DNA from: an uncultured Candidatus Saccharibacteria bacterium | GTDB taxonomy: Bacteria > Patescibacteriota > Saccharimonadia > Saccharimonadales > Saccharimonadaceae | DNA length: 64,000 nucleotides | Direction of reading: 5' to 3' | Assembly: GCA_963528915.1 (NCBI GenBank) | Contig: CAURWV010000003.1 | Coordinates: 24,269 to 88,268, forward strand | In this document: positions 1 through 14,071 of the stretch, piece by piece | Layout of the letters: each line of letters opens with the position of its first letter | How positions within the stretch are numbered: position 1 is the stretch's first letter | The notes under the pieces: model-generated | What the model saw: only the letters and a program-made list of their open reading frames with translations | Told to the model about the DNA's origin: nothing | Database searches by the model: none | Program-made: the position numbers and the translations under genes

Positions 1-1976
1 GCACAAACAAATATTTTGATAAATGGAAAGATATTTTCTTGACGATGCTATTAATGTTCCCGATAGTGTCGTTTTTGTTTGGAGCGGCACAATTAGCTGG
101 CTATGCCATTATCGCCAATGCTGGCGACTCATTAATACAGATTATTATAGGTATGGCCGTACAGATAGCGCCAGTCGCTGTTACGCCGCTCATTGTCAAA
201 TTTAGTGGTGGGCTACTAGGTCGAATTGCTGGTGTTATAAATAACCCAAACCGCGGCCTAATTGACCGTACGCGCAATTGGGCGCAAGGTCGCGCAGCTT
301 ATCAAGCATCAAAGGTTCGATCCGGCAAAAATCTCATCAATACCGATAGGGGTGTTTTCAAGAAGTCAAGTAAATTAAGAAAGGCCGCCAACGCTATTAA
401 TAAGTCTCACGGTAGTCGTGCTAACCTAGTCAACTCGGCCGTTCGCGCGCATCACCGCCGCAGTCAACGAATTAAAGGGCTTACTTCCGCTTACGAAGCT
501 GCAGCCGCTAATAATGCTACTGAATGGGATAACAATCGCCACGGCAAATCTTCAGTGCAAGCAGTCGAAGGCGAAAACGAAGCCCGCAAAGCTGAAATCG
601 GCAACAACTTCTACCGCGCACATCATCATCTTACACAACGTCAGCAATTAGCAGATATCGACAAAGCTCGTGCTCAAAACGAATTTAATGAAACTAGCGC
701 TGGGCAAGAAGTTGAAACCGCTCGTCGCACTGTCGAAGCACATAAACAACGTATCACCAACGATCAACAAGCTCGTTGGGATACACTAGCGCAGACAGAC
801 TCAAACCATAAAGCACTCGAGTTAGAGGTTAAGAAGAGTGAATTCGATGCCGCGCGCGCTAAAGAAAAGCTTGGCAAGATGCACGCCGAAATCATTGCCC
901 AGGGCGACCATAGTGAACATGTTATGAACCTGCGCGGTACTGAATCTGATACTTATTCACGAGAACGCGTACTGCATATCGCTCGCGATATCAAGCAGGC
1001 TAATATTGAGACCAACTTGGCTGGTAGCGCCAAACGTGCAGCCGAACAAGAGTTGGCCAGCGAGATTAATTCAATAATGCTCAATAATACTGTTCGTGTC
1101 GATAACAAACCAGCTCGCCAATATGCCGCCGGTATCGGCACTGAAGCGTCAGCACTAGCAGCTAGCGTCACAAAGGCTCGTAAAGAAGCTGGTGATCGCG
1201 TTGCTGAACAAGTCCAGTTATCGTATCACTTCAAGCTTGATGCTGCGCAAATCGAAGCTCTAGCTACTGGTAATTTAGGAACAGATGCCGATGGCAATGA
1301 GATCATGAGCCTAGATGTCGCCGATGATAAAGGTCGCCGATGGTCATTCGACAAGAATGACGAATACGTCCGCGAAATGGCCGTTGATCAAATCTTCGAC
1401 GTAGGTTCATATAAGCAAAAGAAGAAAATCTGGCTCAGCACCGGCATTCATACTGATGAAAATGGTAACAAAATCGTGGGACACAACTACGACCTGCGCC
1501 GCACCGTAAACCAAGCGGCTATCCGCACCAAGTTTATGGAAGCTGGTCCAATGTTCGCCGACAGATCACTCAAACAGCAACTAAATGGTGATTTCACTAT
1601 CCACGACCTATACTACAACTCATACCGTGAGATACTTGAAGGTAAGCTGAAGTCCGGTATCGTCGCCAAAGCTAATGCCGATGCTTTGCAAGATCTGTTT
1701 AGCGACATCAACAGCGCTAAGATGAATAAAGAGCAGTTCGAGCGCCTCATCAACGATAATATTGCTGGTGAATTGAAGAAGCTGCGCAGCAACAACCCGG
1801 CTGCTTCTGATGCTGACGCTCGCCACTCATTGATCAATAAATTCAACGCTAACCGTGAAGCTATGCGCCGAATGGCCGTTGAAGTACTCAAAACACCTAC
1901 CTTGCGTCAGCTATCATCCGATGAAGCGGTGCGTGTCATGAAAGAATTTACTAAGGGTATATACAATGGCGATTAG
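1..1976 (+). CDS. VirB6/TrbL-like T4SS membrane protein paralogue, 5'-truncated by the window edge, with a ~570-aa charged helical C-terminal tail
   Basis: The frame is open from nt 3, with no stop upstream of the listed ATG at 39, so the N-terminus lies outside the window. The first ~65 aa are hydrophobic TM segments that align with the last TM segments of the 1050-aa ORF at 3147 (FDKWKDIFLTMLLMFPIVSFLFGAAQLAG vs FKKWWTVFKATLLVYPTIGLIYGASSLAAG). The remainder is A/E/K/R/Q/N-rich and coiled-coil-like. Stop TAG at 1974-1976. Confidence 0.55.
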   Translation, partial: TNKYFDKWKDIFLTMLLMFPIVSFLFGAAQLAGYAIIANAGDSLIQIIIGMAVQIAPVAVTPLIVKFSGGLLGRIAGVINNPNRGLIDRTRNWAQGRAAYQASKVRSGKNLINTDRGVFKKSSKLRKAANAINKSHGSRANLVNSAVRAHHRRSQRIKGLTSAYEAAAANNATEWDNNRHGKSSVQAVEGENEARKAEIGNNFYRAHHHLTQRQQLADIDKARAQNEFNETSAGQEVETARRTVEAHKQRITNDQQARWDTLAQTDSNHKALELEVKKSEFDAARAKEKLGKMHAEIIAQGDHSEHVMNLRGTESDTYSRERVLHIARDIKQANIETNLAGSAKRAAEQELASEINSIMLNNTVRVDNKPARQYAAGIGTEASALAASVTKARKEAGDRVAEQVQLSYHFKLDAAQIEALATGNLGTDADGNEIMSLDVADDKGRRWSFDKNDEYVREMAVDQIFDVGSYKQKKKIWLSTGIHTDENGNKIVGHNYDLRRTVNQAAIRTKFMEAGPMFADRSLKQQLNGDFTIHDLYYNSYREILEGKLKSGIVAKANADALQDLFSDINSAKMNKEQFERLINDNIAGELKKLRSNNPAASDADARHSLINKFNANREAMRRMAVEVLKTPTLRQLSSDEAVRVMKEFTKGIYNGD

Positions 1977-1999
1977 TACTGACCAGACCTATACGCCAC

Positions 2000-2028
2000 T
2001 TGACTTTTTGCTGAAAAAGGTATACTAT
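2000..2028 (+). promoter_or_regulatory. candidate sigma70-type promoter for the lipoprotein gene
   Basis: TTGACT at 2000-2005. -10-like TATACT at 2021-2026 (15-nt spacer) or TACTAT at 2023-2028 (17-nt spacer). Motif match only. Confidence 0.3.
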
Positions 2029-2030
2029 AA

Positions 2031-2058
2031 GGTTGTACTTATCCTTTAACGTACAACC
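2031..2058 (+). other. perfect 8-bp stem hairpin in an intergenic/5'-UTR position
   Basis: GGTTGTAC (2031-2038), a 12-nt loop, then GTACAACC (2051-2058). No U-tract follows, so it is not a canonical terminator. Function unknown. Confidence 0.4.
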
Positions 2059-2094
2059 ATAAACCACTAATCCAGAGGAGAGGATTGAAGCTTT

Positions 2095-3021
2095 ATGACA
2101 GAAAAAGGAAATAATAAAGAGATCAGCCGCCGCGGTCTATTCGCAGGAGCTGGTATATTGCTGGGGAGTACAGTCATAGCAGCTTGTGCTAGTAACGAGA
2201 CTTCACATAGTGCGCCGTCTAGCACACCTGAAGATTACGAAGTTCCGACATCAACCCCGACACCAGAGATTGACTCTTCGCCGTTTGAGATATCAGAAAT
2301 GATACCCAAGGAACAAGTCGTAAATGTATTCACGCCACCAAAGCGTTCGGAGTTGCCAGGGTCAGCAGAGAATAAAGAAGATTGTGACCAAAGAGCTCAG
2401 GCGTTAATTAGTTACCTAACCAACTCAATAAATCACTACACTAATCCTGGCATGTTCCTGAACGAAAATAAGGGAGAAGATGTAGATAACGACATGGCAT
2501 ATTGGGGCCAGCGCGGCGTCGCGTCTGGGAAAGTTGAAAAGTTTGGCCAGATTTCTGTACCTATTAATTCTTACTTCGAAGGTATATTTCGCGAATCTAC
2601 AGCTAGACCCAACGAGCGTATTTCATCGGAGATGGATAGATTTTATGAAAGATTGCAGAAAGATTTGAATTATAATACCCTTAGAGCGACTCAAAGCGGT
2701 AGGTATTATGAAGAGCAAAAACCAGACGCCTTCGGTACTACAAATAACGAAGAGTATAGACGGCTATATGAGCTTGCTCCAGGCTACAAAATTTCGTATA
2801 GCGAAAACTATTCCGGTATAGCTATAAGTTTTCAAACAACATCAAAATCAAACGCCGAAGGGTGGGATGACGACCATAACGGACGTGAGTTCGGAATCGA
2901 GTGTACACTAGTGCCAGGAATCAGCATAAAAGGCGATCCAAAGAGCCACGGCGATTCAGACCAGTTGTATATTCAAAAGCTTATGATGATACCGCCTATG
3001 GGAGCCGACTTTAGCGATTAG
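2095..3021 (+). CDS. secreted lipoprotein with Tat-like signal, function unknown (within the T4SS-like cluster)
   Basis: N-terminus ISRRGLFAGAGILLGSTVIAAC has a twin-arginine-like SRRxLF motif, an h-region and a lipobox-like IAAC. An S/T/P/E-rich linker and a ~230-aa globular part follow. RBS AGAGGAGAGGA at 2074-2084. Confidence 0.65.
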   Translation: MTEKGNNKEISRRGLFAGAGILLGSTVIAACASNETSHSAPSSTPEDYEVPTSTPTPEIDSSPFEISEMIPKEQVVNVFTPPKRSELPGSAENKEDCDQRAQALISYLTNSINHYTNPGMFLNENKGEDVDNDMAYWGQRGVASGKVEKFGQISVPINSYFEGIFRESTARPNERISSEMDRFYERLQKDLNYNTLRATQSGRYYEEQKPDAFGTTNNEEYRRLYELAPGYKISYSENYSGIAISFQTTSKSNAEGWDDDHNGREFGIECTLVPGISIKGDPKSHGDSDQLYIQKLMMIPPMGADFSD

Positions 3022-3056
3022 TGATTGAAATTTAATTTAATCATCACTTAATTCAC

Positions 3057-3090
3057 AAAAGATACCACCTACTACGGTGGTATCTTTTTC
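3057..3090 (+). terminator. rho-independent terminator after the lipoprotein gene
   Basis: AAAA, GATACCACC (3061-3069), loop TACTAC, GGTGGTATC (3076-3084), then TTTTTC. Perfect 9-bp stem with a U-tract; the A-tract upstream would allow bidirectional function. Confidence 0.8.
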
Positions 3091-3146
3091 ATATCCTTAA
3101 TCTAGTATTTTTCACTATATATTGCTACACTATCTAGTAGATAACC

Positions 3147-6100
3147 ATGAGAAGAATAAAAAAATATTTTCTACTGTTAATTGGAGCGATCTGTCTAATT
3201 TCTCTTGTAGCACTGCCCGCTCAGCGTGCCGCAGCCGAAGACGTACCATGGCCATCAGACACATCGAAAGCTATAACAGCTCTTGATGTTAACATTCTGG
3301 CAACTTGTTTCGGTAACATGAAAGGCGGTGGATATGTTTATTCTAAAGATCTAGATGATAACAAAAAAGGAAATAACTCTATAATCGCACACGGTAAAGT
3401 GCAGTCAGGTATATCATCATATGATGGCGACGGTGGCACTATGAATTGTACTAGTCTATCTAATGCCAGCATTAAAGAAATTTTTAAGGCTGCTGGCTAC
3501 ACTCAAGGTAGTTTGTATGGTATATTCTGTGATGGCACGGGACTAGCCGAATGTAGCGGAGGCTCCGATCAAAAAACAAAAATAGATTACAAAGCCACGC
3601 ATGACGCTCTAGTAAAGGCAGCACCTCTTACAAATGCGTGGAAATATTATTTGACCAGTAGAGTGTTGCATGATCAATGTGGATATGAGGATAGAGGCAC
3701 TGGCGTAAGTAGCGGTGATATGGGAGCGAGCGACGCCACCGCTAAGGTTGTCACTAGTAGCGGCAGTATCGAAGATCACGTCTATCGCCTTAAGGATACT
3801 GGAAAAAGAGTCTACCCTATGCCTATTACCGAATTCAGCGAAGATGGAACAACGTGTAAAGATTTGGTATCGTTCCTAAGCGGAAGCTGGGCGGATGAGT
3901 ACGCAGCCTATATCAAAGGCTTAGGTCTATCAGGAAATAACAACAATGGTGGTGGTAATAATAACGGTGATAATGGTAATGGCGGTGGTGGTAATGACGG
4001 AGAGAATAAAGGCGATGACGAAGAACAGTGCAAAATCGACTACTTAGGTTGGATTCTCTGTCCGATAATAAATACATTAGGAACGATATCAGATGAAGCA
4101 CAGAAACAACTTGAGCAATTTCTACACTTAAGCAATGAAGCGATCATATCTGATAGATCAGAATCTTCGCCATACGCCTATTGGTCGAGGATTCGGGATT
4201 ATGCTAATGTTTTGTTTGTTATTGCCTTCTTGGTCATTATTTATTCGCAATTAACTGGTCGTGGCATAGATAATTACGGCATCAAGAGAATGCTGCCGAA
4301 ACTAATAGCAGGCATTATATTAGTTAATGTATCATTCTACTTATGCGGATTAATGGTAGATTTATCAAATCTGATAGGGAAAGCCGCATATCAATTCATA
4401 ACCGCACCAAAAGCAGGAGATGGCGTCCCAGACGGTTCCTGGTCACAAACCGGTAATACTTTCACAGGTATAGTAGCGACAGCCACCGCCGTTACTGCAG
4501 GTTTATTCGCTATGTCTGCAATTTTATCAGCTTTAATATTTATAAGTATTACGGTTGTAACGACGGTATTTCTACTGGGAGTGCGCGAGGCTTTAGTTAT
4601 ATTATGTGTAATATTATCACCACTAGCCTTCGTCGCCATGCTACTGCCGAACACTGAAAATCTTTTCAAAAAGTGGTGGACTGTATTCAAGGCTACCTTA
4701 TTGGTTTATCCTACTATAGGTTTAATCTATGGAGCTAGTAGCTTAGCAGCAGGGATTCTTCAAGGCAGCGTCTCTGATTTAGATGCAAACAACACAGTTA
4801 GGGTTATTAAACAAGTCTTAGCCGCTGTATTAATGTTCGCTCCATTATTAGCAGTACCAAAACTAATCGCGGCAGCAATGGCTGTCGGCGGCCTTGCCTC
4901 TATGGTTGGAAGGCTTCAGGATCGTGCAAATAAGTTTCTCAACGATAGAGCTCAAAGTAAACTAGATAGTAGTACTTATGGGCAATATATGAAGCATCGG
5001 AAAGAGAAAAAAGCCCTCAGAGATGCCCAGATACAAGGCGGCTCTTTCAAAAGAAGAGGCGGTTTATTAGGACTGCGAGATCGTGCGACCCTTAGGCAAT
5101 TCCGATCTAACAGAAATGCTGGATTTAATAAGAGTAGATTCTCGGGTGATTTTGGAGATAAGCGTTCCTTGTTAGGTAACCAAGCTCTCTTACAAGAAGA
5201 TAACGAACGAATGAAAGCCGCTGATGCTTGGATCGCCAGTAATAATTTCCAATCTAATGAACTGATGACGGCAGCCACAAAAGGTATAGGAGCAGACGGT
5301 AAAAAAATATCGTCTTATCAGCAGCGCGCAGCCATGCGAGCTTTAGCTCCAATCATGACCGGGGATCAGGCAATGCAATTAGCAAATGCTACCAGTGAAT
5401 TCAGTGGTAGCGATCAAGATTCTCTACGCAAAGAAGCTTCCGCAGCTGTCGCTCAAGTGGGGGCCAAAAAAGCTCCATTCCTTGGCGGTAAACAATTAGA
5501 AGCTATGCGACAAGGAAGCTACGATCAGGACGAAGCTATTGAATATTACCTCAAGAATAAAGCCAGCGGCGCTGGTCTAGCGGGCTCAGACAAGGCAGGT
5601 GTCAAAGCAATGGTAGACGCCGCCCAAAAGGCTCAAACTAGCGGCGACAGCTCGATGATGGATAGTTTAGTGAATTCACGCGCCCAGGTTGAATCCAACT
5701 CTAGACTCAAGAGTAGTGTGGGCGAAGGTGTAGCTTCAGAAATTGAACGTATTCCATATAATGGTAAATCCGGCGGTGGTTCTGGCTCTGGCGGCGGTAA
5801 TAGCGGTGGTGGATCCGGCGGTGGTTCTGGCTCTGGCGGAGGCGGTAATAGCGGTGGTGGATCTGGCGGTGGTTCTGGCTCTGGCGGAGGCGGTAATAGC
5901 GGCACGCTAAATGTACCACATGGTGGCAGTATTCCATCGAACAGTAGTAGTTCCGCATTTAGTAATAATTCCTCACCTAGCGGAGGCGGTAATAGCGGTG
6001 GTGGATCCGGCGGTGGTTCTGGCTCTGGCGGAGGCGGTAATAGCAACAATTCCGGAGACAGAGGACCAACGATAATTAATAATTACAATAACCAAACCTT

Positions 6101-6299
6101 TACGACCAACACCAACCAAACGAATAATTTCTCTGGTAACAATAGCGGATCATCAGATAATGGAGCATCATCTCCATCAGCAAGCAATGAGGTTCCGTCA
6201 CAAAAGCCTACTAGACTTGACATAGGTAAATCCAATTCCTTTAACGATGATTACAAAAAACCAAAGCCACCAACACCACCATCAGCTGGACTTGCATAA
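3147..6299 (+). CDS. VirB6/TrbL-like polytopic T4SS membrane protein with a secreted N-domain and a long Gly/Ser/Asn-rich repetitive C-terminal tail
   Basis: Signal peptide (LISLVALPAQRAAA/EDV). A ~300-aa Cys-containing N-domain. An Asn/Gly tract (NNNNGGGNNNGDNGNGGGGNDGE). About 6-7 TM helices between aa ~350-600. A ~450-aa hydrophilic tail ends in GGGSGSGGGGNS repeats and an N/T/S/P-rich end. The VirB6-like call rests on topology, context next to PrgI/VirB4 genes, and paralogy to the ORF at 1-1976. Confidence 0.6.
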   Translation: MRRIKKYFLLLIGAICLISLVALPAQRAAAEDVPWPSDTSKAITALDVNILATCFGNMKGGGYVYSKDLDDNKKGNNSIIAHGKVQSGISSYDGDGGTMNCTSLSNASIKEIFKAAGYTQGSLYGIFCDGTGLAECSGGSDQKTKIDYKATHDALVKAAPLTNAWKYYLTSRVLHDQCGYEDRGTGVSSGDMGASDATAKVVTSSGSIEDHVYRLKDTGKRVYPMPITEFSEDGTTCKDLVSFLSGSWADEYAAYIKGLGLSGNNNNGGGNNNGDNGNGGGGNDGENKGDDEEQCKIDYLGWILCPIINTLGTISDEAQKQLEQFLHLSNEAIISDRSESSPYAYWSRIRDYANVLFVIAFLVIIYSQLTGRGIDNYGIKRMLPKLIAGIILVNVSFYLCGLMVDLSNLIGKAAYQFITAPKAGDGVPDGSWSQTGNTFTGIVATATAVTAGLFAMSAILSALIFISITVVTTVFLLGVREALVILCVILSPLAFVAMLLPNTENLFKKWWTVFKATLLVYPTIGLIYGASSLAAGILQGSVSDLDANNTVRVIKQVLAAVLMFAPLLAVPKLIAAAMAVGGLASMVGRLQDRANKFLNDRAQSKLDSSTYGQYMKHRKEKKALRDAQIQGGSFKRRGGLLGLRDRATLRQFRSNRNAGFNKSRFSGDFGDKRSLLGNQALLQEDNERMKAADAWIASNNFQSNELMTAATKGIGADGKKISSYQQRAAMRALAPIMTGDQAMQLANATSEFSGSDQDSLRKEASAAVAQVGAKKAPFLGGKQLEAMRQGSYDQDEAIEYYLKNKASGAGLAGSDKAGVKAMVDAAQKAQTSGDSSMMDSLVNSRAQVESNSRLKSSVGEGVASEIERIPYNGKSGGGSGSGGGNSGGGSGGGSGSGGGGNSGGGSGGGSGSGGGGNSGTLNVPHGGSIPSNSSSSAFSNNSSPSGGGNSGGGSGGGSGSGGGGNSNNSGDRGPTIINNYNNQTFTTNTNQTNNFSGNNSGSSDNGASSPSASNEVPSQKPTRLDIGKSNSFNDDYKKPKPPTPPSAGLA
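5769..5903 (+). repeat. in-frame tandem repeat, 45/48-nt unit, ~2.9 copies, encoding S-G-G-G-S-G-S-G-G-G-G-N-S-G-G-G
   Basis: Copy 1 at 5769-5813 (45 nt, one Gly codon shorter). Copy 2 at 5814-5861 (48 nt). Partial copy 3 at 5862-5903. The copies are near-identical at nucleotide level. Confidence 0.9.
5982..6044 (+). repeat. dispersed fourth copy of the same Gly/Ser/Asn repeat unit
   Basis: GGAGGCGGTAATAGCGGTGGTGGATCCGGCGGTGGTTCTGGCTCTGGCGGAGGCGGTAATAGC is nearly identical to the unit junction at 5838-5900. It is separated from the tandem block by ~80 nt of S/N-rich coding sequence. Confidence 0.85.
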
Positions 6300-6319
6300 A
6301 TGCGTTATAATAGACGTAT

Positions 6320-7258
6320 ATGGCAGAATACAAAGTAGCACAGGATGTTGAAGCCGAAGATAAATTAATTGGACCATTCAGTTTCCGACAATTTATCTAT
6401 TTGATCGTGGTGGCTATCTGTATCGCCATGGCCTGGGGATTGAGCCAGATTTTTATCGCCTTGGCATTGATACCTCTACCCTTTATATTACTCTTCGGCG
6501 CATTAGCATTACCGCTACGCAAAGACCAGCCAATGGAGATATATCTAGCGGCAATAGTGTCGTATATGTTAAAACCACGCAAGCGTGTGTGGGAACCGGA
6601 CGGTGTTGATTCTCTAATACAGATAACCACACCAGAAGTTGTCGATGAGCACCTCACCAAAGAACTGACTCAATATGAAACCGAAAAACGCCTATCGTAT
6701 TTGGCCAATATTGCTGACACCGAAGGATGGTCGATTCGTCATGCTACCGCACCAGTCCCTAATAGTTCAATGAATCCTGACCAATACTATGCAGCACAGC
6801 AGACTGTAGACGTGATGGATGACGATGGTGGTGTAGCTAGGAAGTTCGACACTATGATAGCTCATGCCGATCAAGATCGCCGTACTCAGATTATGCAAAA
6901 TATGCGTCAAACACAGCCTACATCAGCACCGTTACCGCAGTCGCCAAGCATACCTGACGATCATAGCGATATTCAAAATGGTCGTGTATCAAAATTCAAT
7001 CCGTATCCTACTATTCATCAAACCGTTATACAGCCAAGGAGAACAGACGACAAGCAACCACCACATAATCAAATTAACCAACCTAATACACAGAACCATA
7101 ATGGCGTGAGACAACCAAATATTAGCACTAACATCACGTCAGATGCTATAATGAGTATAGCTAATAATAGCGGTTTGTCAGTCGAGACTATACAGAGGGA
7201 AGTTGACAAGCTCAAGAAAAATAACGATGATAGTGAAATATTCGTATCATTACACTAA
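6320..7258 (+). CDS. PrgI-family (VirB3-like) T4SS membrane protein with a Q/P/N-rich C-terminal extension
   Basis: The N-terminus AQDVEAEDKLIGPFSFRQFIYLIVVAICIAMAWGL followed by a second TM matches the PrgI-family pattern (acidic motif, then a two-helix hairpin). It sits directly upstream of VirB4-related genes. The C-terminal ~150 aa are low-complexity Q/P/N/T-rich. Confidence 0.6.
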   Translation: MAEYKVAQDVEAEDKLIGPFSFRQFIYLIVVAICIAMAWGLSQIFIALALIPLPFILLFGALALPLRKDQPMEIYLAAIVSYMLKPRKRVWEPDGVDSLIQITTPEVVDEHLTKELTQYETEKRLSYLANIADTEGWSIRHATAPVPNSSMNPDQYYAAQQTVDVMDDDGGVARKFDTMIAHADQDRRTQIMQNMRQTQPTSAPLPQSPSIPDDHSDIQNGRVSKFNPYPTIHQTVIQPRRTDDKQPPHNQINQPNTQNHNGVRQPNISTNITSDAIMSIANNSGLSVETIQREVDKLKKNNDDSEIFVSLH

Positions 7259-7270: not shown

Positions 7271-8206
7271 ATGGGTATGCCGCCAGATCAGCAGAAACTA
7301 GCGCCGCAATTACCGTCACCGAATAATGTCGGTTCCGGACAAAACCCACCTGTACCGCCTATGAATAATGGCGGTCAAAGCATCAACCAGATGAGCCCCA
7401 ACAGCTCTACTCCGGAAGACCCTAATAGTCAAAACTCTTCAAACTCCAAGAAAAAGAAGCAACAAAAGGCCAAATCAACAAGTACTCAAAACACCTTACT
7501 GTTTTCGGAATTAAGAGATAGTATGGTTATCATGGGTGACGGGTCGTTCCGAGCAGTAGTAGCCTGCAAATCTATCAACTTCGATCTTATGAGTTCGCGC
7601 GAGCGTGATGGCGTCGAGTTGAGCTACCAGGATTTCCTGAATGCCCTGTATTTTCCAATCCAAATATTTGTCCGTTCGCAACGTGTCGATATTGGTCCAT
7701 ATTTAGATAAACTTGAAAGCTTCCGTGTCAACGAAGACAACATGCTTCTAGGTGTACTGATGGACGATTATATCAATTTCATTGATGTACTGTCCCAAGA
7801 GGCGAATATCATGGATAAGAGTTTTTTCGTGGTGATCCCATATTTCCCAACAGGCGACACTGTCAATGTCATGCAGCAAAGTAAAGGATTTTTTTCGATG
7901 GTGTTTGGCGGCAATAAAGATCCCGTCACCAAAATTAATAAAGAAACTTATATCAAAGCTAAGGAAGAAATCAAAAACCGAGTCGATTCTGTAATTGGCG
8001 GTTTAATGCGTGTCGGCGTACAATCTATACAGCTCAATACCAAGCAGCTCGGAGAGCTTTATTATAATATATATAACCCCGATACGGCCGTACGCGAGCC
8101 GCTTGGCGACTTCCACGAGGTAGCCTCGTTGTATGTACGTAAAGGTACCGAGAAAGATAGAGAAAAAGAAGCTAATCCGTTTATCAATAATAGAGGAGTA
8201 TCCTAG
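7271..8206 (+). CDS. soluble protein resembling the N-terminal domain of Gram-positive VirB4/TraE ATPases, with no P-loop
   Basis: An 80-aa P/N/Q/S-rich disordered N-terminus. Then MGDGSFRAVVACKSINFDLMSSRERDGVELSYQDFLNALYFPIQIFVRSQRVDIGPYL, the pattern seen at the start of conjugative VirB4-type proteins. No Walker motifs. The TAG stop (8204-8206) overlaps the GTG start of virB4. Confidence 0.45.
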   Translation: MGMPPDQQKLAPQLPSPNNVGSGQNPPVPPMNNGGQSINQMSPNSSTPEDPNSQNSSNSKKKKQQKAKSTSTQNTLLFSELRDSMVIMGDGSFRAVVACKSINFDLMSSRERDGVELSYQDFLNALYFPIQIFVRSQRVDIGPYLDKLESFRVNEDNMLLGVLMDDYINFIDVLSQEANIMDKSFFVVIPYFPTGDTVNVMQQSKGFFSMVFGGNKDPVTKINKETYIKAKEEIKNRVDSVIGGLMRVGVQSIQLNTKQLGELYYNIYNPDTAVREPLGDFHEVASLYVRKGTEKDREKEANPFINNRGVS

Positions 8207-10059
8207 TGGCGCATAAGAAAAAAGCTGATCCGATAGATATCGCCGCGCAACAACGCGAACGCGAACAAGCCGAAGTAGAGCAGGCATTCTTGAAGGGTAT
8301 GAATACGCTGCGTGATTTGATAGCGCCAAGCAGTCTAGAAATCCACTCAAGCTATTTCCGTATCGGTACTAAATACGGCAGAACTATATATGTCTACGGT
8401 TATCCGCGACTACTATATACCGGCTGGTTATCAGGAGTTATTAATATTGATCAAGTCATCGATATTAGCATGTTTATTTATCCTGTAGATACCGCCGTTG
8501 TTTTAAAGAACTTGCGCAAAAAAGTGACTCAGCTTGAGGCTGATATGGCTCTTAATGCCGAAAAAGGTAAGACTCGCGACCCGGGTAAAGAAGCAGCCCT
8601 AGCTGACGCCGAGGAGTTACGTAATGAATTACAAGTAGGTTCGGAACGTTTCTTTCGTTACGGATTGTATGTAACTATTTACGGCGACAGTCTTGAAGAG
8701 CTGGGCTATATACAGCACACTATCGAAACAATTTTTGGACAAATGTTGATTTATAGTAAAACCGCTTCTAGCCAACAAGAACAAGGTTTAAACAGTACAG
8801 TACCACAAATGAGCGATCAATTACAGATTCGCCGTAATATGAATACTGGAGCAATTAGTACTAGCTTTCCATTTACAAGCGCTGATTTAACTCAAGAAAA
8901 CGGTATTCTATACGGCATTAATATGCACAACAACGGCCTAGTTATCTTTGACCGTTTTACTCTAGAAAATGCCAATATGGTAGTCTTCGCGAAATCTGGT
9001 GCTGGTAAATCATTCACTGTCAAATTAGAAGCCTTACGTAGTATGATGATGGGCGCTGATATCCTAATAATAGACCCAGAAAACGAATATCAAAAGTTGT
9101 GCGATGCTGTCGGCGGCAGTTATACGCGGCTAAGTTTAAGTAGTGATACACGTATTAATCCGTTCGATTTGCCAAAAATAATTGACGGCGACGAAGCAGA
9201 TGACGCTCTGCGCGCTAATCTAGTAACATTACACGGATTACTGCGGCTAATGCTAGGTGGTGCTTCAGCAAATAATGCTGGCATCGGCTTGTCGCCAGCC
9301 GAAGAGGCTGACCTAGATCAGGGATTAATTGACACTTATGCTCGCGTTGGTATTACTAGCGACCCGCTTACGCATACTTCTGTACCACCGACAATGGGTG
9401 ATTTATATGATACGTTATTACACATGGGCGGTACCGGCCCACAGCTAGCGCAGCGCTTACGTAAATATACTACTGGTACTTTTGCTGGTATTTTCAGTCA
9501 GCAAAGCAACATAGATATCAATAATAATATGGTGGTATTCAATATTCGCGATCTCGAAGATGAATTGCGACCAGTGGCAATGTATATCGTCCTTAGCCAC
9601 ATCTGGAATATTGTCCGTACCCAACAGAAAAAACGTATGTTGATCGTCGACGAAGCCTGGCAGCTGATGAAATATGACGATTCAGCGAACTTCATGTTCA
9701 GCCTGGCCAAGCGCGCCCGCAAATATTATTTAGGCTTGACGACTATCACTCAGGACGTCGAAGACTTTATGGGTAGCAAAATGGGCCGCGCTATTGTTTC
9801 GAACTCATCGATGCAGCTACTGCTGAAACAATCATCTAGCGCTGTCGATGTGCTAGGCGATGTGTTTAAATTAACCGAAGAAGAGCGCAAGCGTTTAGCT
9901 AATTTCCCGGTCGGACAAGGCTTATTTTTCGCTGGACAGAACCACGTTCACATCCAAGTCATCGCCAGCGATACCGAGACTGGTTTGATTACTACTAATC
10001 CACAAGCTACCTTACAACAGGCTGCAGCTGCTGCGTCGTCAGAAGGGCAGACACAATAG
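8206..10059 (+). CDS. virB4: T4SS ATPase VirB4 (PrgJ/TraE/TrbE family)
   Basis: Walker A AKSGAGKSF, Walker B MLIVDEAW. Typical VirB4 N-region (GYPRLLYTGWLSGVINID) and C-terminal motifs (TTITQDVEDF, LLLKQ). GTG start at 8206 with RBS AGAGGAG at 8192-8198. Confidence 0.9.
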   Translation: MAHKKKADPIDIAAQQREREQAEVEQAFLKGMNTLRDLIAPSSLEIHSSYFRIGTKYGRTIYVYGYPRLLYTGWLSGVINIDQVIDISMFIYPVDTAVVLKNLRKKVTQLEADMALNAEKGKTRDPGKEAALADAEELRNELQVGSERFFRYGLYVTIYGDSLEELGYIQHTIETIFGQMLIYSKTASSQQEQGLNSTVPQMSDQLQIRRNMNTGAISTSFPFTSADLTQENGILYGINMHNNGLVIFDRFTLENANMVVFAKSGAGKSFTVKLEALRSMMMGADILIIDPENEYQKLCDAVGGSYTRLSLSSDTRINPFDLPKIIDGDEADDALRANLVTLHGLLRLMLGGASANNAGIGLSPAEEADLDQGLIDTYARVGITSDPLTHTSVPPTMGDLYDTLLHMGGTGPQLAQRLRKYTTGTFAGIFSQQSNIDINNNMVVFNIRDLEDELRPVAMYIVLSHIWNIVRTQQKKRMLIVDEAWQLMKYDDSANFMFSLAKRARKYYLGLTTITQDVEDFMGSKMGRAIVSNSSMQLLLKQSSSAVDVLGDVFKLTEEERKRLANFPVGQGLFFAGQNHVHIQVIASDTETGLITTNPQATLQQAAAAASSEGQTQ

Positions 10060-10082: not shown

Positions 10083-12941
10083 ATGCCACTGGGTACATCA
10101 AAGAAATCAAACACTGATTACGACGACAACGTCGACAATCTTGACGCCCATAAACAAGAAGTTCAATCGCCAAGCCAGGCGCATTGGGATAATACTGTCG
10201 GTCAAAACCTATCAGGCATGGAAAATAGGAAAAAAAATACCTATAACGATGAAAACTACTCTGATAGCAATGCTGCTAGCGATATAGGCGATCAAGAAAA
10301 TCAATCTAGACAACCTGGATCAGATTGGACAAATAACACATCCAAGAAACGCGACAAAGAAAAAAAAGGTAGAAAAGGTTTTGTTAAACGTTTCGGTGCT
10401 ACTGGCGCTGTTCTTGGCTTATTAACTGGCGGCGTACTTGGCATTGGCGGATCGACAGGCGTCATGGGTTCTTTGCTAATATCTGTAAAAGAACAGGTAA
10501 TGACAGTTCTTGATCAGCAACATTATACTTCTATGTCGCGATCAAATCGTATATTAGTACGGCGTCTAGCTGATGAATCTACAGCAGGGTCATGTACTCT
10601 TATCAAGTTCGCCTGTCGATACACTAAACCAACAAGTTATCAGCTCAAGCAACTAGAGAAATCCGGCATTAAAGCACTCGATAAAGATGGCAATGTTATC
10701 GAAGAGAATAAGCTAATTGGCGGCACCAGGCCAACTCATTACGAAATCGACGGAGAAAAAATATCAGCGAAAGACTTTAAAAAAACAATCAGAGAAAATC
10801 CTAAGGTTCGCAGCGCTTTTCGCCGCGCTCACAATCCGCGCTGGGTTAACTGGGTCGACGATAAAGCAGTTAAGCTATTCGAAAAACTTGGTATCGGTAA
10901 ACGACTATCCGAAAAACTCAGAAAGTCTAAACGTTCTAAGAATGATCTAGCCGAAGTAACCGACGAGTTATCAAAAGCTGAAAACAAATCCGGCGACAAA
11001 ATCAAAAAAGAGATAGCTGATGAAGCCGGGAAATTCGCCGAAAAAGAAGCGAAAAAATCTACCAAAAAGACTCATGACGCCAAGCTAATGATGGCACAAG
11101 TGGTATGTGCTGCTGCACGAGCCCCAAATGTTCTTGTTAATATACAACGTAGCTATCGTATTGCACAATATGCTAAAATTGGCTATCAATTTCTGACTGT
11201 GGCTGACGCTATCAAAAAAGGTAAAGCCACGCCAAAATTAGTCGAAAACGCCGCAACTATCCTGACTCAAACCTACAAAAAATCCGACGGCACTATCAAA
11301 AAATCAGCTATGGACTCTAGTTTGATGAAATATAGTTTAGGCTTGGGTGTATCTGGTAATAAATCATCATACATACCAGGCGTCGGCGGCACTATGGCTA
11401 AGTATTTACAAATCGTCAATAGCGGCGCTGTCAAGACCGGTTGCGATTTGGTTAGCTCGACAGCCGCAGAAGTCGCAGTCGCCGTATTTGACGGTATCAA
11501 AAATGGATTGGGACCTATAGGCTGGGCGTGGACAGCTGGTGAATTCGCTATTGAGGGCATTCTATCTATCGACAGTGTGCAAAAAAAGATCAGCGAAGGG
11601 ATAGGCGATATTGTACAAACCGCTGTCGACAAATTCGGAAGTCTAGTTGATTTTAATAAAATCGCTGAGTATTTCCTTGGCGACAAAACCAAAGGAGCGA
11701 TTGGCACTGATATTGGTGATATAAGCGGTATTGCCTGGTCAAATAGTATGGCTGACCAAGCCAGCTACGTTGGGAATTCACCACTCACCCTACCGCAAAA
11801 AGCCGCCTACGACGAACATATCGTCAAACCGGAACGCGTAGCTATGGCCGAAGAAGATCGCTTAAATCACAGCCCGTTTGATATATCTAGTCCGAACACA
11901 TTTCTAGGCTCTATAGCTATACGATTCTTACCATATTTAGGTTCGGTCTCAAATCCTTTATCATTCATCTCTGCGATTTCATCAATCTCTAGTTCATCCT
12001 TATTCAATTTCACTAGCCCAGCAGCTTACGCCAAAAACGTCATTAACTCTAACAAATGCAGTCAAGATGCACTGCTAGCAGCTGAATCTGACATAGCCGT
12101 CGGACCAGCCTGCGATGTGCAATATGGCATACCAAATGAATACATGGGTATCGAGCCTGACCAAGTAGCTAGCGAGCTGAATTCAATGGGGCAAATAGAC
12201 GAAGATGGCAACATCGTAGATGGTAGTGAATTAAAAGAATGGACAGAAACCTGTAATGTGGCCAGCAGTATAAATATCAAAGGATGTGTCGTTAATGAGA
12301 GAAAATACGCATTGTTTGGTCTATACCAGATTGACAAACGGGCGATAGACGATATGGACGAGGATCCCGACGCATTCAAAAATGGATCGCTAACCCAAGA
12401 ACAACAATCAGAAGAAGAGAATTCATCTGGCGCTAGTTCGGCTATTGGCGAGCCAGAATTTGAGCAAGCCCAACCATTATCAGAAGCAGAATCAAGAGGC
12501 GATCCAGATAACCCAACGTGGCCAGGCAAAGAGAATGGCAAAATCGCCGACTCTGATCTAGCAGAATTATCCTTTGCTCCTGGACAAAGGATGTATAAAC
12601 AAGCAGCAGAAGCTATGGAAGAAATGAATAAAGCCTACAAAGCAGAAAAGGGTGCAGACTTCCAAGTAAATTCAGCTTACCGCTCCTTCGAAGAACAAGA
12701 AAAACTATTCTCAAGCGGCCAAACTGCAGCTAGAGGCGGTAGATCAAACCATGGTTGGGGGTTAGCTATCGATATCCAGGTAGGCGACTTTGGTTCAGAT
12801 ATTTATAATTGGCTTAAAGCGAACGCTCACAAATACGGCTTCGTACACCCGCCTTGGGCAGAGCCAGCACCTGCTCAACCTGACGGCAAAAGACACCAAC
12901 CCGAGCAATGGCATTGGGAATATGCTAGGAGAGTATACTAA
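10083..12941 (+). CDS. large membrane-anchored protein with a C-terminal M15 (VanY-type) zinc D-Ala-D-Ala carboxypeptidase/peptidoglycan hydrolase domain
   Basis: ~100-aa disordered N-terminus. One Gly-rich TM (GATGAVLGLLTGGVLGIGG). A ~650-aa domain of unknown family. The C-terminus carries SAYRSFEEQEKLF, SNHGWGLAIDI and EQWHWEY, matching the VanY/M15B SxYRS, SxHxxGxAxD and WH motifs. Confidence 0.8.
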   Translation: MPLGTSKKSNTDYDDNVDNLDAHKQEVQSPSQAHWDNTVGQNLSGMENRKKNTYNDENYSDSNAASDIGDQENQSRQPGSDWTNNTSKKRDKEKKGRKGFVKRFGATGAVLGLLTGGVLGIGGSTGVMGSLLISVKEQVMTVLDQQHYTSMSRSNRILVRRLADESTAGSCTLIKFACRYTKPTSYQLKQLEKSGIKALDKDGNVIEENKLIGGTRPTHYEIDGEKISAKDFKKTIRENPKVRSAFRRAHNPRWVNWVDDKAVKLFEKLGIGKRLSEKLRKSKRSKNDLAEVTDELSKAENKSGDKIKKEIADEAGKFAEKEAKKSTKKTHDAKLMMAQVVCAAARAPNVLVNIQRSYRIAQYAKIGYQFLTVADAIKKGKATPKLVENAATILTQTYKKSDGTIKKSAMDSSLMKYSLGLGVSGNKSSYIPGVGGTMAKYLQIVNSGAVKTGCDLVSSTAAEVAVAVFDGIKNGLGPIGWAWTAGEFAIEGILSIDSVQKKISEGIGDIVQTAVDKFGSLVDFNKIAEYFLGDKTKGAIGTDIGDISGIAWSNSMADQASYVGNSPLTLPQKAAYDEHIVKPERVAMAEEDRLNHSPFDISSPNTFLGSIAIRFLPYLGSVSNPLSFISAISSISSSSLFNFTSPAAYAKNVINSNKCSQDALLAAESDIAVGPACDVQYGIPNEYMGIEPDQVASELNSMGQIDEDGNIVDGSELKEWTETCNVASSINIKGCVVNERKYALFGLYQIDKRAIDDMDEDPDAFKNGSLTQEQQSEEENSSGASSAIGEPEFEQAQPLSEAESRGDPDNPTWPGKENGKIADSDLAELSFAPGQRMYKQAAEAMEEMNKAYKAEKGADFQVNSAYRSFEEQEKLFSSGQTAARGGRSNHGWGLAIDIQVGDFGSDIYNWLKANAHKYGFVHPPWAEPAPAQPDGKRHQPEQWHWEYARRVY

Positions 12942-14071
12942 TGAAGAAAAACTACTTATTGCTGTTTGTGACGGTAATAACCGCATTGTTTACTACTCCC
13001 AGAGCCTACGCTCTAGAAATACCAGATGCCAACAACGATATACTTTTCTATTCAGAAAAAGCGGCTAGTGGCTGTAGTAATGCTACCGGTGAACTAGTAG
13101 GTAACGATAATCTCGAGAAAATATACAACTATTTCATATCGCAAGGATTGTCTCCAGAGCAAGCTGCCGGTGTAGTCGGTAATATAGCGCAAGAATCAAA
13201 AGGCGACCCGACAATAGTTGAAGGAGGTAATCACACTGAAGACCCATCTGGTGTTAGTGGTGGATGGGGAATTATCCAGTGGACTCCAGGGTCAAAAGTT
13301 CTCGGTATCGCTAAGCAGGCTGGTATTACTGGTGACATATCGAAACTCGAAACTCAACTCCAAGTCGTCTGGTGGCATATGACCACACAGACACCGACTG
13401 GCGTTGCTAACTTCATCGAACAATACAAAACAGTCACTGATGTCAGAGCAGCTACCGACTTGTATGAGAAAAAAATGGAAGCCGCCGGCATACCTAACAT
13501 GGCGAACCGCTACGCTGCCGCCGAGCTAGCCCTCAGCACATATGGTAAGGGGTCGTCTACCACCACATCGTCTGGGAAAAATTGCGGTGGTGGCGCGGTA
13601 GCTGGCAGTGCCATCGAGACAGCCAAAAACTATGCCTGGCCAACATACGAAAGAGGTAAGACTGAGAAAAAACCCGAATACGAAACTGCTATTCAAAAAA
13701 CAAAATCAGAAGGCGGATTCGTCGGCGATAGTTGTTTCGGCGGCGGAGTCGATTGCGGCGCCTTCGTCACTCGCGTCATGCAGGATAGTGGTGCTGACCC
13801 AGAATACAACCCCGAAAAAGGCAACACTAGCGCACAGCTGAACTATGCTATGAATAGTCCAAAATACGAAAAAGTCGACCCTGGCGACGTTAAACCTGGC
13901 GATATTGCAATTCGCTCTGGACACACCTATCTATACATCGGTGAGGTTGAAGGTTTCGAAACACAGGTGGCATCTGCATCACAATGTGAACATGCGCCAA
14001 TGTCAGCACATGAAGGTGTTGGCGACCCGTCATACTCTTGGTTTAGACTAAAGGGAGGTTCCAAAGAATGA
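12941..14071 (+). CDS. secreted bifunctional cell-wall hydrolase: lysozyme-like (phage tail-tip lysozyme type) N-domain plus NlpC/P60- or CHAP-like cysteine peptidase C-domain
   Basis: Signal peptide ending PRAYA/LE. LSPEQAAGVVGNIAQESKGDP...GWGIIQWTPGSK matches the tail-tip-lysozyme family pattern. The C-domain has DCGAFVTRVM (catalytic Cys context) and GDIAIRSGHTYLYIG (His context). Its ATG shares one nt with the upstream TAA stop (12939-12941). Confidence 0.78.
   Translation: MKKNYLLLFVTVITALFTTPRAYALEIPDANNDILFYSEKAASGCSNATGELVGNDNLEKIYNYFISQGLSPEQAAGVVGNIAQESKGDPTIVEGGNHTEDPSGVSGGWGIIQWTPGSKVLGIAKQAGITGDISKLETQLQVVWWHMTTQTPTGVANFIEQYKTVTDVRAATDLYEKKMEAAGIPNMANRYAAAELALSTYGKGSSTTTSSGKNCGGGAVAGSAIETAKNYAWPTYERGKTEKKPEYETAIQKTKSEGGFVGDSCFGGGVDCGAFVTRVMQDSGADPEYNPEKGNTSAQLNYAMNSPKYEKVDPGDVKPGDIAIRSGHTYLYIGEVEGFETQVASASQCEHAPMSAHEGVGDPSYSWFRLKGGSKE

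Follow-up and report, generated by a model that had tools for sequence, protein, structure and literature searches.

Paired VirB6-like proteins with large hydrophilic tails in a monoderm-type T4SS cluster near the replication origin of a Saccharibacteria bacterium

What are the two large, tailed membrane proteins encoded on either side of a lipoprotein gene at the start of this Saccharibacteria sequence, and on which side of the membrane do their tails lie? The window, i.e., the whole stretch of 64,000 nucleotides analyzed here, opens with an ORF ending at 1976, followed by a lipoprotein gene and an ORF of 1050 amino acids (aa), all present where the preliminary description had placed them. 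On the + strand, frame 3 reads without interruption from nucleotide (nt) 3 to a stop at 1974-1976, giving 657 codons with no upstream stop, and the first ORF, here gene A, is therefore truncated by the window edge. Recovering the upstream sequence, as had been proposed, yielded the full first paralogue. The source contig (L001) is 100% identical to the window across the entire 13,021-bp overlap, with L001 nt 7907 corresponding to window nt 1, and it carries the complete gene A at 6799-9882, encoding 1027 aa. The features of the locus, in window coordinates, are:

1..1976, + strand: 3' part of the A-type VirB6 gene (aa 371-1027 from nt 3, plus stop), assigned by identity to L001
3..224, + strand: final two hydrophobic helices of the A core (A aa ~378-404 and ~412-437), including FDKWKDIF...GAAQLAG
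225..1973, + strand: A tail (aa ~445-1027), predicted to be cytoplasmic
2095..3021, + strand: lipoprotein of 308 aa with a twin-arginine signal (SRRGLF motif, lipobox Cys31), positional orthologue of SEML1_0012
3147..6299, + strand: B-type VirB6 gene, 1050 aa, orthologue of SEML1_0011 by position and architecture
3147..3236, + strand: B signal peptide or N-terminal anchor (aa 1-30, ...AQRAAA followed by ED), from direct reading of the sequence and hydropathy
3237..4004, + strand: B ectodomain (aa 31-286), acidic and hypervariable
4005..4958, + strand: B VirB6/TrbL-like membrane core (aa 287-604)
4959..5756, + strand: B conserved tail (aa 605-870), K/R-rich next to the membrane and then forming a helical repeat of HEAT/ARM-like type
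5757..6296, + strand: B low-complexity Gly/Ser/Asn/Pro end (aa 871-1050; pLDDT ~25)
6320..7258, + strand: PrgI-family (VirB3-like) protein (PF12666, E 2.3e-11)
7271..8206, + strand: TrsD/TraC-like protein, the N-terminal portion split off from VirB4
8206..10059, + strand: VirB4 ATPase of the CD1110 family (E 1e-111)
10083..14071, + strand: two predicted cell-wall hydrolases with a VirB1-like role

Full-length A and B align with 32% identity over 330 aa (E 3e-55), A148-462 pairing with B287-604 and thus covering the entire membrane core. The truncated A ORF also matched B by BLASTP (E 2e-7, 24% identity over 102 aa), reproducing the motif pair from which paralogy had been proposed by eye. The similarity over the whole core is far beyond chance, and the pairwise alignment that had been suggested as a check firmly identifies A and B, from their sequences, as paralogues with a common ~315-aa polytopic core of VirB6/TrbL type. 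The cores contain five to seven hydrophobic segments. PF04610 (TrbL) was matched by 14 of the 32 Saccharibacteria family cores (best E 1.6e-8); A (E 0.4, 10.9 bits) and the B core (E 0.12, 12.6 bits) fall below its gathering score of 25.9 bits, and both alignments span profile positions 25-207 of 215. A precomputed Pfam table gives PF19590 (TrbL_3) for A, unmarked (E at most 1e-5), and PF19590.5 for nearly all A and B orthologues shown; a local search of the Pfam library returned no PF19590 match. When the family profile was compared with the PDB, the sole match was TrwI/VirB6 of R388 (E 0.052, not significant alone), located on the PLAF...F.KW motif; in B, the motif aligning with TrwI reads PLAF...P.T...F.KW. 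The two top Foldseek matches of the B model were likewise TrwI chains (best probability 0.96, E 0.088, TM-score 0.31, again not significant alone). The similarity to TrwI is marginal, and the AlphaFold models, with a mean pLDDT of 51 for B and 37 for A, are too poor to fix the fold or the helix count. The TrbL-clan profiles and the T4SS context nevertheless support the initial reading of A and B as VirB6/TrbL-like proteins with large hydrophilic C-terminal extensions.

The genes around A and B form a chromosomal, oriC-proximal, monoderm-type T4SS cluster, which consists of six pilins, A, the lipoprotein, B, PrgI, TrsD, VirB4, and two hydrolases. On L001, the six T4SS_pilin genes lie directly upstream of A on the opposite strand, with one more further off. 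The first hydrolase (952 aa) ends in a VanY/M15 peptidase domain, and the second (376 aa) contains a phage-tail-lysozyme domain. Adjoining the cluster at 15.3-19.2 kb are dnaA, dnaN, and recF together with DnaA boxes (19.1-19.2 kb), placing the T4SS cluster about 13 kb from dnaA/oriC. No VirB9, VirB10, or VirB11 was found among the companion genes. Similarly, a scan of the cluster genes, the ten downstream ORFs (15.3-26.7 kb), and the nine largest of those further on revealed neither a coupling protein nor a relaxase.

The arrangement is not particular to this genome. Most of 71 loci from Saccharibacteria keep the gene order A-type, lipoprotein, B-type, PrgI, TrsD, VirB4, and the tandem pair, each type with its characteristic lengths, recurs in both oral and environmental members of the group. 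A-type proteins have an ectodomain of ~140-150 aa and a tail of 460-780 aa. B-type proteins have a long, Cys-rich, fast-evolving ectodomain of 300-440 aa (here a region of ~290 aa) and a shorter tail of 250-450 aa, formed by helical repeats and then a low-complexity end. Nanosynbacter-like loci (L008-L033) encode the same pair, and these oral relatives share ~65% identity with A and ~50% with B. In Nanosynbacter lyticus TM7x itself, two predicted virB6 genes (TM7x_00055 and TM7x_00060) have already been named, with a virB8-like neighbor (TM7x_00050); these tags are compared here as a pair only and are not equated with the A- and B-types.

The closest described counterpart is SEML1_0001-0024 of Southlakia epibionticum ML1, where gene order and sizes agree gene for gene with this locus (PMC10633639, Tables S1/S2). 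Starting from dnaA, both run through dnaN, recF, two small genes, two hydrolases, VirB4, TrsD, PrgI, B, the lipoprotein, A, six pilins, Hsp20, a phosphoribosyltransferase, and a further pilin. The genes for A, the lipoprotein, and B measure, in this order, 3267, 837, and 2997 bp in Southlakia and 3084, 927, and 3153 bp here. In both, the short-ectodomain copy lies beside the pilins, the long-ectodomain copy lies beside PrgI, and the middle gene carries a TAT signal. Southlakia is a different species, and the Gly/Ser/Asn repeat end is particular to the present lineage. Judged by synteny, size, and domain layout rather than by sequence comparison, A, the lipoprotein, and B are inferred to be orthologues of SEML1_0013, SEML1_0012, and SEML1_0011, respectively. 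Structure-based annotation assigned SEML1_0011 and SEML1_0013 to T4SS/VirB6 with C-terminal ARM repeats (PMC10633639). Tn-seq over three time points called SEML1_0011 essential throughout (ES/ES/ES), SEML1_0013 non-essential and then essential (NE/ES/ES), and SEML1_0012 non-essential throughout (NE/NE/NE) (Wang et al. 2023, PMC10633639). SEML1_0011 also tolerated insertions at 43-46 sites with high read counts (PMC10633639), so that some part of the B-type protein is dispensable.

The lipoprotein begins with MTEKGNNKEISRRGLFAGAGILLGSTVIAAC, where a twin-arginine motif precedes a lipobox (Cys31), and the motif, the hydrophobic stretch, and the lipobox Cys at position 31 are all present in SRRGLFAGAGILLGSTVIAAC. 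It gave no match to the Pfam TAT_signal model at E up to 0.1; signals similar to this one are also seen in positional homologues at many loci. The protein evolves very fast, sharing 26% identity across 43% of its length with oral relatives, and sequence searches with it gave no matches bearing on an NTF2-like/VirB8-like fold. For SEML1_0012, a TAT signal and such a fold have been annotated (ECOD e4ec6D1, probability 0.90; PMC10633639), and by analogy with this positional orthologue the lipoprotein may be a VirB8-like/NTF2-like component.

A and B share their core and differ in what surrounds it. In A, an N-terminal domain of ~150 aa precedes the core, and a tail of about 565-583 aa with 29% charged residues extends past the last hydrophobic segment. 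It starts with a K/R-rich juxtamembrane stretch (14 K/R vs 2 D/E in 61 aa), beyond which it is charged, predicted to be helical, and devoid of Cys; its identity to oral relatives is 60%. In B, the ectodomain holds six of the seven Cys of aa 1-286, the seventh (C16) lying within the signal peptide, and is predicted to adopt an alpha/beta fold (pLDDT 70-83). Among relatives with 94% identical VirB4, the similarity of this domain is 23% identity or undetectable. The core contains the family-wide motif C-x5-GW-x2-CP (aa 295-306, nt 4029-4064). The tail then comprises about 446-460 aa, of which aa 605-870 are the best-conserved portion of B among the near-identical orthologues compared. Part of the last 180 aa is encoded by a 48-bp tandem repeat (2.9 copies, 5768-5902), and this low-complexity end differs in length among 94-98% identical orthologues and is not conserved beyond those. 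In every domain, B outpaces A in evolutionary rate.

The sizes and composition initially given for the tails, charged in A and ending in Gly/Ser/Asn-rich sequence in B, agree with these data, and the two do differ in composition and length. Their different character does not extend throughout, however, as the C-terminal helical parts of the tails probably share ancestry, although a second profile comparison was weak. The B-tail profile matches HEAT-like alphaRep proteins (E 5e-4 to 1e-2), and beyond such generic HEAT-like repeats neither tail has detectable similarity to any Pfam family or solved structure.

On which side these tails lie was judged from the positive-inside rule, the Cys pattern, and the substitution pattern. 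Along the 32 family cores, loop net charge alternates, predicted inside loops being positive in 29-32 of the 32 and predicted outside loops negative. The 50-60 aa following the membrane region carry a net charge of about +7 and are net positive in 29 of the 32 members. A and B are thus predicted to be N-out/C-in, making the tails most likely cytoplasmic scaffolds and not adhesins. The opposite arrangement was raised by the preliminary description, which considered channel extensions or adhesins; here, with an even number of crossings, the C-termini would project through the wall and serve as channel extensions, adhesins, or arms contacting the host, the B end being a wall-spanning linker. The hydrophobic block B442-502 can indeed be read as two segments instead of three, the B end is of low complexity and variable in length like many surface proteins, and the role of extended-VirB6 domains is acknowledged as unknown (PMC12857230). 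However, the ambiguous segment B483-502 has positive flanks on both sides, which makes parity odd whether five helices and a re-entrant element or seven helices are counted, and the charge past the last helix is that of an inside segment. Cysteine content is double-edged. N-domains contain 1.9 Cys per 100 aa plus an invariant Cys pair, whereas 92 of 92 tails contain none, with ~340 expected at the window background of 0.81%. This complete absence exceeds what a cytoplasmic location alone explains and is common in proteins exported unfolded, yet one would expect Cys in an exported tail as well, since the N-domains of the same proteins are rich in it and keep conserved pairs. Finally, substitutions among near-identical B orthologues are concentrated in the predicted outside loops and, like the variable ectodomain, contrast with a tail that is spared. 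Extracellular tails are therefore considered unlikely.

Taken together, A, the lipoprotein, and B are likely VirB6-family subunits and a lipoprotein of an oriC-proximal, monoderm-type Saccharibacteria T4SS, orthologous to SEML1_0011-0013, with their tails in the cytoplasm. It is possible, though on balance doubtful, that A and B are alternative subunits for different stages, i.e., initial host encounter and stable attachment, rather than partners in one complex. In TM7x, TM7x_00055 is higher at initial encounter and TM7x_00060 in stable symbiosis (bioRxiv 10.1101/2022.03.25.485537), and the Tn-seq kinetics differ, SEML1_0011 being essential from the first time point and SEML1_0013 from the second only. 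Yet both end up essential in one co-culture, the TM7x tags are not equated with either type, and the single strand, short gaps, and lack of a terminator-like site between the genes suggest co-transcription. A reading in which either gene is a redundant or decaying copy without a separate function is very improbable. The faster evolution of B in all domains and the many insertions tolerated in SEML1_0011 could be read in this way, but both reading frames remain uninterrupted in this genome and across dozens of lineages that keep the type-specific architecture, both Southlakia orthologues were called essential, and strongly reduced genomes argue against retaining 3-kb pseudogene-like genes. It is scarcely credible that the two are ABC-2-type transporter permease-like proteins lying in the cluster by chance. 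While both Southlakia orthologues carry KEGG K01992 (ABC-2 permease) and one annotation tool calls SEML1_0013 an 'ABC transporter permease' (score 0.575), there is no Pfam ABC-2 match and no adjacent ABC ATPase, the profile and fold evidence all points toward TrbL/VirB6, and linkage to PrgI, TrsD, and VirB4 holds in most of the 71 loci.

The pair had been likened to the proliferated VirB6 proteins of the Rickettsiales, and in architecture and lifestyle the parallel holds. RvhB6a-e of the rvh system are 674-1154 aa long, compared to 1027 and 1050 aa here, and combine a VirB6/TrbL domain of a few hundred residues with large hydrophilic extensions, VirB6 being duplicated in a reduced-genome, host-dependent organism in both cases (Gillespie et al. 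2009, PMC2653234). However, the rvh system is diderm and of MPF-T type, with VirB8-B11, the coupling protein VirD4, and five paralogues, whereas the system here is monoderm-type, with PrgI, a CD1110-type VirB4 in split form, and wall hydrolases; the scanned ORFs include no coupling protein, and there are two paralogues with a lipoprotein gene between them. An assignment of A and B as rvh-type VirB6 was rejected on these companions and the lack of VirB9, VirB10, and VirB11 among them; the two duplications are independent. Since the system is monoderm-type and both genes were already annotated in Southlakia and TM7x, the suggested convergence is not a new one.

Compared to canonical VirB6 of ~300-350 aa, which lacks a large ectodomain or tail, A and B have both, while their cores are polytopic, as are TrwI of R388 and VirB6 of A. 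tumefaciens. The latter, as Jakubowski and colleagues reportedly found in 2004, is N-out/C-in with an odd helix number, as predicted for A and B. PrgH and TcpH, which are Gram-positive VirB6-like proteins, are counted among the 'extended VirB6' proteins. The concept goes back to Alvarez-Martinez and Christie 2009 and is taken up again in PMC12857230; it describes proteins with five or more hydrophobic helices and one or more large hydrophilic domains, as in A and B.

In the cytoplasmic-tail reading, an N-terminal signal or anchor would export each protein, placing outside a domain of ~150 aa in A and a Cys-rich, hypervariable one of ~290 aa in B. An odd number of crossings, whether by seven helices or by five with a re-entrant hairpin, would then leave the long tail in the cytoplasm. 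On the model of R388, where a TrwI/VirB6 pentamer sits at the base of the stalk, the cores may provide a membrane platform for assembly of the six VirB2-like pilins and for passage of cargo, with the ectodomains extending into the wall and the host interface. It could be speculated that the helical tails, HEAT/ARM-like in B, dock the split VirB4 ATPase (TrsD plus VirB4) and/or cargo. The observation of paired, tailed VirB6 paralogues is correct, yet the locus had already been described; a T4SS of this type is conserved across Saccharibacteria (TM7), and it is the system that these bacteria need for living on their host bacteria.

The two large VirB6-type proteins are encoded on the forward strand on either side of a lipoprotein gene. 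The upstream protein (A) enters the window in frame 3, where 657 codons are open between nt 3 and the stop codon at 1974-1976 and no stop lies upstream, and is followed by ORFs of 308 aa at 2095-3021, the twin-arginine/lipobox lipoprotein, and of 1050 aa at 3147-6299, the downstream protein (B). An exact-sequence look-up showed that an 85-kb metagenomic scaffold (L001) encodes the identical 308-aa lipoprotein; L001 and the window are identical across their whole 13,021-bp overlap, with window nt 1 corresponding to L001 nt 7907. The edge-truncated gene of the preliminary description could be completed from this scaffold, in which A is 1027 aa long (L001:6799-9882). The preliminary description had also aligned the last transmembrane segments of A and B by eye and taken the two for paralogs. 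BLASTP of the truncated A product against B reproduces that alignment (FDKWKDIF... to FKKWWTVF..., E 2e-7), and full-length A matches B at E 3e-55 with 32% identity over 330 aa (A148-462/B287-604). Since the latter match spans the entire hydrophobic core, the paralogy is real and strong. Antisense ORFs in 953-1891 and 3913-6049 were dismissed as coding-strand by-products, e.g., a Pro-rich reading of Gly-repeat DNA, and a promoter and terminator scan of 1900-6400 found nothing above chance.

The gene neighborhood of A and B settles that the system is a type IV secretion system (T4SS), and its further components are as follows.

Genes around A and B (window coordinates)
upstream of A, opposite strand: six T4SS_pilin (VirB2-like) genes, with a seventh further off
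downstream of B: PrgI/VirB3-like gene
within 7271-10059: TrsD/TraC-like gene, 311 aa, matching the N-terminal part of VirB4-type models
within 7271-10059: VirB4 ATPase gene, 617 aa, CD1110 family (E 1e-111; positions 172-733 of the 752-position model)
downstream of B: two wall hydrolase genes, one with a VanY/M15 domain and one with a phage-tail-lysozyme domain
15303-19940 (recF-dnaA 15.3-19.1 kb), minus strand: recF, dnaN, and dnaA

VirB4 is split between the TrsD/TraC-like 311-aa and the CD1110-family 617-aa proteins, and neither a coupling protein nor a relaxase was found among the cluster genes, the ten ORFs downstream (15.3-26.7 kb), or the nine largest ORFs beyond. DnaA-box clusters are located at 19101-19228 and 17464-17622, and the window's only two perfect DnaA boxes (TTATCCACA), together with two one-mismatch boxes, fall at 19.10-19.23 kb. 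Because these boxes and recF, dnaN, and dnaA are located there, the T4SS cluster adjoins the chromosomal oriC, which lies ~13 kb from the VirB6 genes; such proximity to the origin has been reported for Patescibacteria T4SS clusters. Farther along the window, an envelope-polysaccharide gene run at ~23300-55400 encodes GT1, GT2, and GT4 glycosyltransferases, two DUF2142 membrane proteins, a Wzt-type ABC ATPase, a Wzy-like ligase, and a Bac_transf priming transferase, and G+C is 0.36-0.41 between 30 and 44 kb versus 0.42-0.49 elsewhere in the window. The stretch at 55690-60624 opens with a 662-aa protein whose C-terminal domain is of the class-A-like beta-lactamase family (PF13354); next come tRNA-Asn (57739-57813) and the anaerobic ribonucleotide reductase NrdD (58375-60624).

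The locus is orthologous to a system that has already been described and in part tested, and its novelty is therefore low. In the gene table of Southlakia epibionticum ML1 (Wang et al. 2023, PMC10633639, Table S1), dnaA, dnaN, and recF are SEML1_0001-0003, followed by two small (0004, 0005) and two large (0006, 0007) genes, 0008 (KEGG K12063), 0009 (882 bp), 0010 (PrgI), 0011 (2997 bp), 0012 (837 bp), 0013 (3267 bp), six small genes (0014-0019) in the opposite orientation, 0020 (Hsp20), 0021 (K02242), and a further pilin (0024). The order of SEML1_0001-0024 agrees gene for gene with that of the window and L001. PDB entry 4EC6 is the VirB8-like TraM of pIP501. The closest domain to SEML1_0012, which has a TAT signal and is NTF2-like, is ECOD e4ec6D1, while SEML1_0013 is annotated from structure as TrbL/VirB6 (MAPEG-like residues 156-445, ARM repeat 806-1085) and SEML1_0011 as "type IV secretion system protein" (ARM repeat 746-995) (PMC10633639, Table S2). 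The orthologs SEML1_0011 and SEML1_0013 are essential in the one species tested: Tn-seq calls at three time points are essential throughout for 0011, non-essential and then twice essential for 0013, and non-essential throughout for 0012 (PMC10633639). Despite its essential calls, SEML1_0011 retains 43-46 insertion sites with ~800-1100 normalized reads (PMC10633639), which means that disruption is tolerated in part of the B-type protein. A transcriptome preprint on TM7x (Nanosynbacter lyticus) names two virB6 genes and one virB8 in the T4SS region, with responses that differ between initial encounter and stable symbiosis. Further treatments of the Saccharibacteria T4SS are Quinonero-Coronel et al. 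2025, in the supplements of which no Southlakia locus tags were found, and a 2025 review that restates the "extended VirB6" concept and gives the role of the extra domains as unknown. The Saccharibacteria system is the first T4SS shown to be essential to its carrier, yet its role is called completely unknown (PMC12857230, PMC11665869).

Several lines of evidence point to a VirB6/TrbL identity of A and B; they agree in direction, while none is decisive singly. A precomputed Pfam table gives PF19590 (TrbL_3) for A and almost every A or B ortholog, and a local Pfam-A scan, in which the model may be absent or changed, did not match PF19590 to A or B at any E up to 1. In local Pfam and NCBIfam searches, neither A and B nor their tails alone gave a significant match. 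PF04610 (TrbL) is sub-threshold for both (E 0.4 for A and 0.12 for B, profile positions 25-207 of 215) and matches 14 of 32 diverse family cores, with a best E of 1.6e-8. Searched against the PDB at E up to 10, a profile of the 32 cores has exactly one match, TrwI, the VirB6 of R388 (E 0.052), with the two aligning along the conserved PLAF...P.T...F.KW stretch; in single-sequence searches, A finds TrwI at E 0.2. Those with B matched engineered proteins at their Gly/Ser linkers only, a low-complexity artifact, and those with the lipoprotein only cyanovirin linker constructs. In Foldseek, the AlphaFold2 model of B likewise has TrwI chains as its two best matches (probability 0.96, but E 0.088). 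As no PDB match of this model reaches E 0.001, both the TrwI and the helical-repeat Foldseek matches are leads only; the model of A is unusable. The main reading of the preliminary description, a VirB6/TrbL-like pair with large extensions and a lipoprotein gene in between, is supported.

The pair is conserved. In the 71 loci obtained from a scan of species-representative genomes, an upstream VirB6 gene is followed by one of ~1 kb, whose product often has a twin-arginine and lipobox signal, and then by the genes for the downstream VirB6, PrgI, TrsD, and VirB4; this order recurs in both oral and environmental lineages. All 71 loci and the named homologs belong to Saccharibacteria (TM7). Some oral Saccharibacteria carry two consecutive twin-arginine/lipobox-type lipoprotein genes between the VirB6 genes rather than one (L016 7981-9759; L017 6974-8773; L025 6589-8758). 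Upstream (A-type) copies have an N-domain, the part before the core, of 137-177 aa and a tail, the part after the last hydrophobic helix, of 460-780 aa, while downstream (B-type) copies mostly have an N-domain of 300-440 aa and a tail of 250-450 aa. In an exhaustive HMMER search, the B core matches 14,047 representative clusters at 50% identity (E up to 0.001), and the best 150 of these all have the long-N-domain layout, with total lengths of about 700-1600 aa. In a neighbor-joining tree of 32 cores, 10 of 12 upstream cores form one clade, but a clean split into A-type and B-type was recovered in 0 of 200 bootstraps. The exceptions are L040 and L047, in which the PrgI-adjacent copy has an A-like core with a long (305-aa) and an A-like short N-domain, respectively, and L072, whose two copies group together as closest relatives. 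The duplication is old, but not every lineage has inherited it unchanged; for some, the pattern suggests that replacement, gene conversion, or re-duplication took place.

Both proteins start with a signal-like segment ending AAA and have acidic, Cys-rich N-domains. In both types, the first core helix is preceded by a C-x5-GW-x2-CP motif, in which two Cys are nearly invariant. Loop net charge alternates across the 32 cores.

Mean net charge of loops across 32 cores (B numbering)
before helix 1: -0.9
B372-382: +1.8 (positive in 32/32)
B408-441: -1.2
B477-482: +1.1
B503-513: +1.5
B538-551: -0.75
about 50 aa after the last helix: +7.0 (positive in 29/32)

As B483-502 is flanked by positive charge on both sides, it either forms a re-entrant hairpin in a five-helix core or belongs to a seven-helix arrangement, and the odd number of crossings under either count implies an N-out/C-in orientation. 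Judged by loop charge, the tails are thus most likely cytoplasmic, which argues against the earlier suggestion that they serve as adhesins or channel extensions. Tail Cys is absent from 92 of 92 distinct full-length family members (L001-L077; mean tail 457 aa), compared with 1.9 per 100 aa in N-domains and 0.81% in other window proteins. Cys-free tails fit a compartment other than that of the N-domain, yet their total lack of Cys exceeds what a cytoplasmic location alone would explain. Some neighboring proteins are Cys-poor as well (VirB4, 1 in 617 aa; TrsD, 1 in 311; the C-terminal part of PrgI, 0 in 217).

The preliminary description regarded the two tails as different in character. This holds in that a direct BLAST of the A tail against the B tail shows no similarity, but their C-terminal parts are probably related. 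The A tail is charged (91 K/R and 78 D/E in 583 aa) and, at very low confidence, modeled as almost entirely helical; the full-length AlphaFold2 model of A, from an 18-sequence alignment, has a mean pLDDT of 37. The B model has a mean pLDDT of 51, with moderate confidence only in the ectodomain (70-83) and the conserved tail (605-870; 60-75), which is predicted to be helical, while the last 180 aa are disordered low-complexity sequence. The B-tail family profile matches HEAT-like alphaRep proteins (E 5e-4 to 1e-2), in agreement with the ARM-repeat assignment of both Southlakia orthologs. BLAST matches between the C-terminal part of upstream tails and downstream tails occur at E 1e-11 to 1e-35 in environmental lineages, and the upstream tail of L071, clearly related to that of A, matches oral B-type tails at E ~1e-4. 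Using hhalign, A767-1020 and B685-869 match at E 2.8e-4 (probability 41%), which with slightly different alignments becomes only E 0.0097 (probability 4%). An ancestral helical-repeat module common to both tails is therefore probable.

The likeness to the Rickettsiales rvh system drawn in the preliminary description is fair at the level of architecture, as RvhB6a-e are 674-1154 aa long with a VirB6/TrbL domain of ~413 aa. It does not extend to membership, as rvh is a diderm MPF-T machine whereas the system here is of the monoderm type, and the likeness is one of independent duplication in a common theme. Extended VirB6 proteins are widespread (2025 review). Nor is the likeness a new convergence, since both genes are already annotated in Southlakia and TM7x.

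As measured by sequence identity, the rate of evolution varies strongly inside this one operon-like cluster.

Identity of window proteins and domains (window 2095-14071) to oral Nanosynbacter-like relatives (including L011, L012, L020, and L029)
VirB4: 94%
TrsD: 73-75%
A core: 72%
A tail: 60%
PrgI: 60%
B core: 52%
B tail: 50%
376-aa lysozyme-like protein: 30-33%
lipoprotein: 26% over 43% of its length
B ectodomain: 23% or undetectable

Among B orthologs of 94-98% identity, substitutions concentrate in B413-450 and B547-549, with only four in the 266-aa tail, and lengths vary from 1029 to 1050 aa. The difference in length maps to the Gly/Ser repeat at the B end, where a 48-bp tandem repeat (5768-5902, 2.9 copies, 95% matches) encodes GGGSGSGGGGNSGGGS units, suggesting repeat slippage.

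According to the R388 structural entries (PDB 7o3v, 8rt9), a TrwI/VirB6 pentamer is the base of the stalk. By analogy, the A and B cores would form a membrane platform for pilin assembly and cargo passage, their ectodomains would face the wall and host, and the cytoplasmic tails may be a scaffold for the split VirB4 ATPase, for cargo, or for both in a system in which the genes searched include no coupling protein. Import of host macromolecules has been proposed for Patescibacteria. It could be speculated, although we consider it rather unlikely, that A and B form one hetero-oligomeric VirB6 platform with divided labor. Here, the hypervariable Cys-rich B ectodomain and the fast-evolving lipoprotein would set the host envelope that is engaged, and the Cys-free, K/R-rich helical cytoplasmic tails would replace the missing coupling protein, either as an effector docking site or, if the machine imports, as a receiving platform for incoming nucleic acid.

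The window locus is no new kind of system. The comparisons made here do offer handles for domain-level genetics in cultivable species: each of the two paralog types has its own fixed set of domain lengths, the helical-repeat tails are probably cytoplasmic, and the B ectodomain and the lipoprotein evolve extremely fast next to a VirB4 that is 94% conserved. Of remaining interest are the part that the tails play and how sharply the very fast-evolving outward-facing regions differ from the conserved ATPase.
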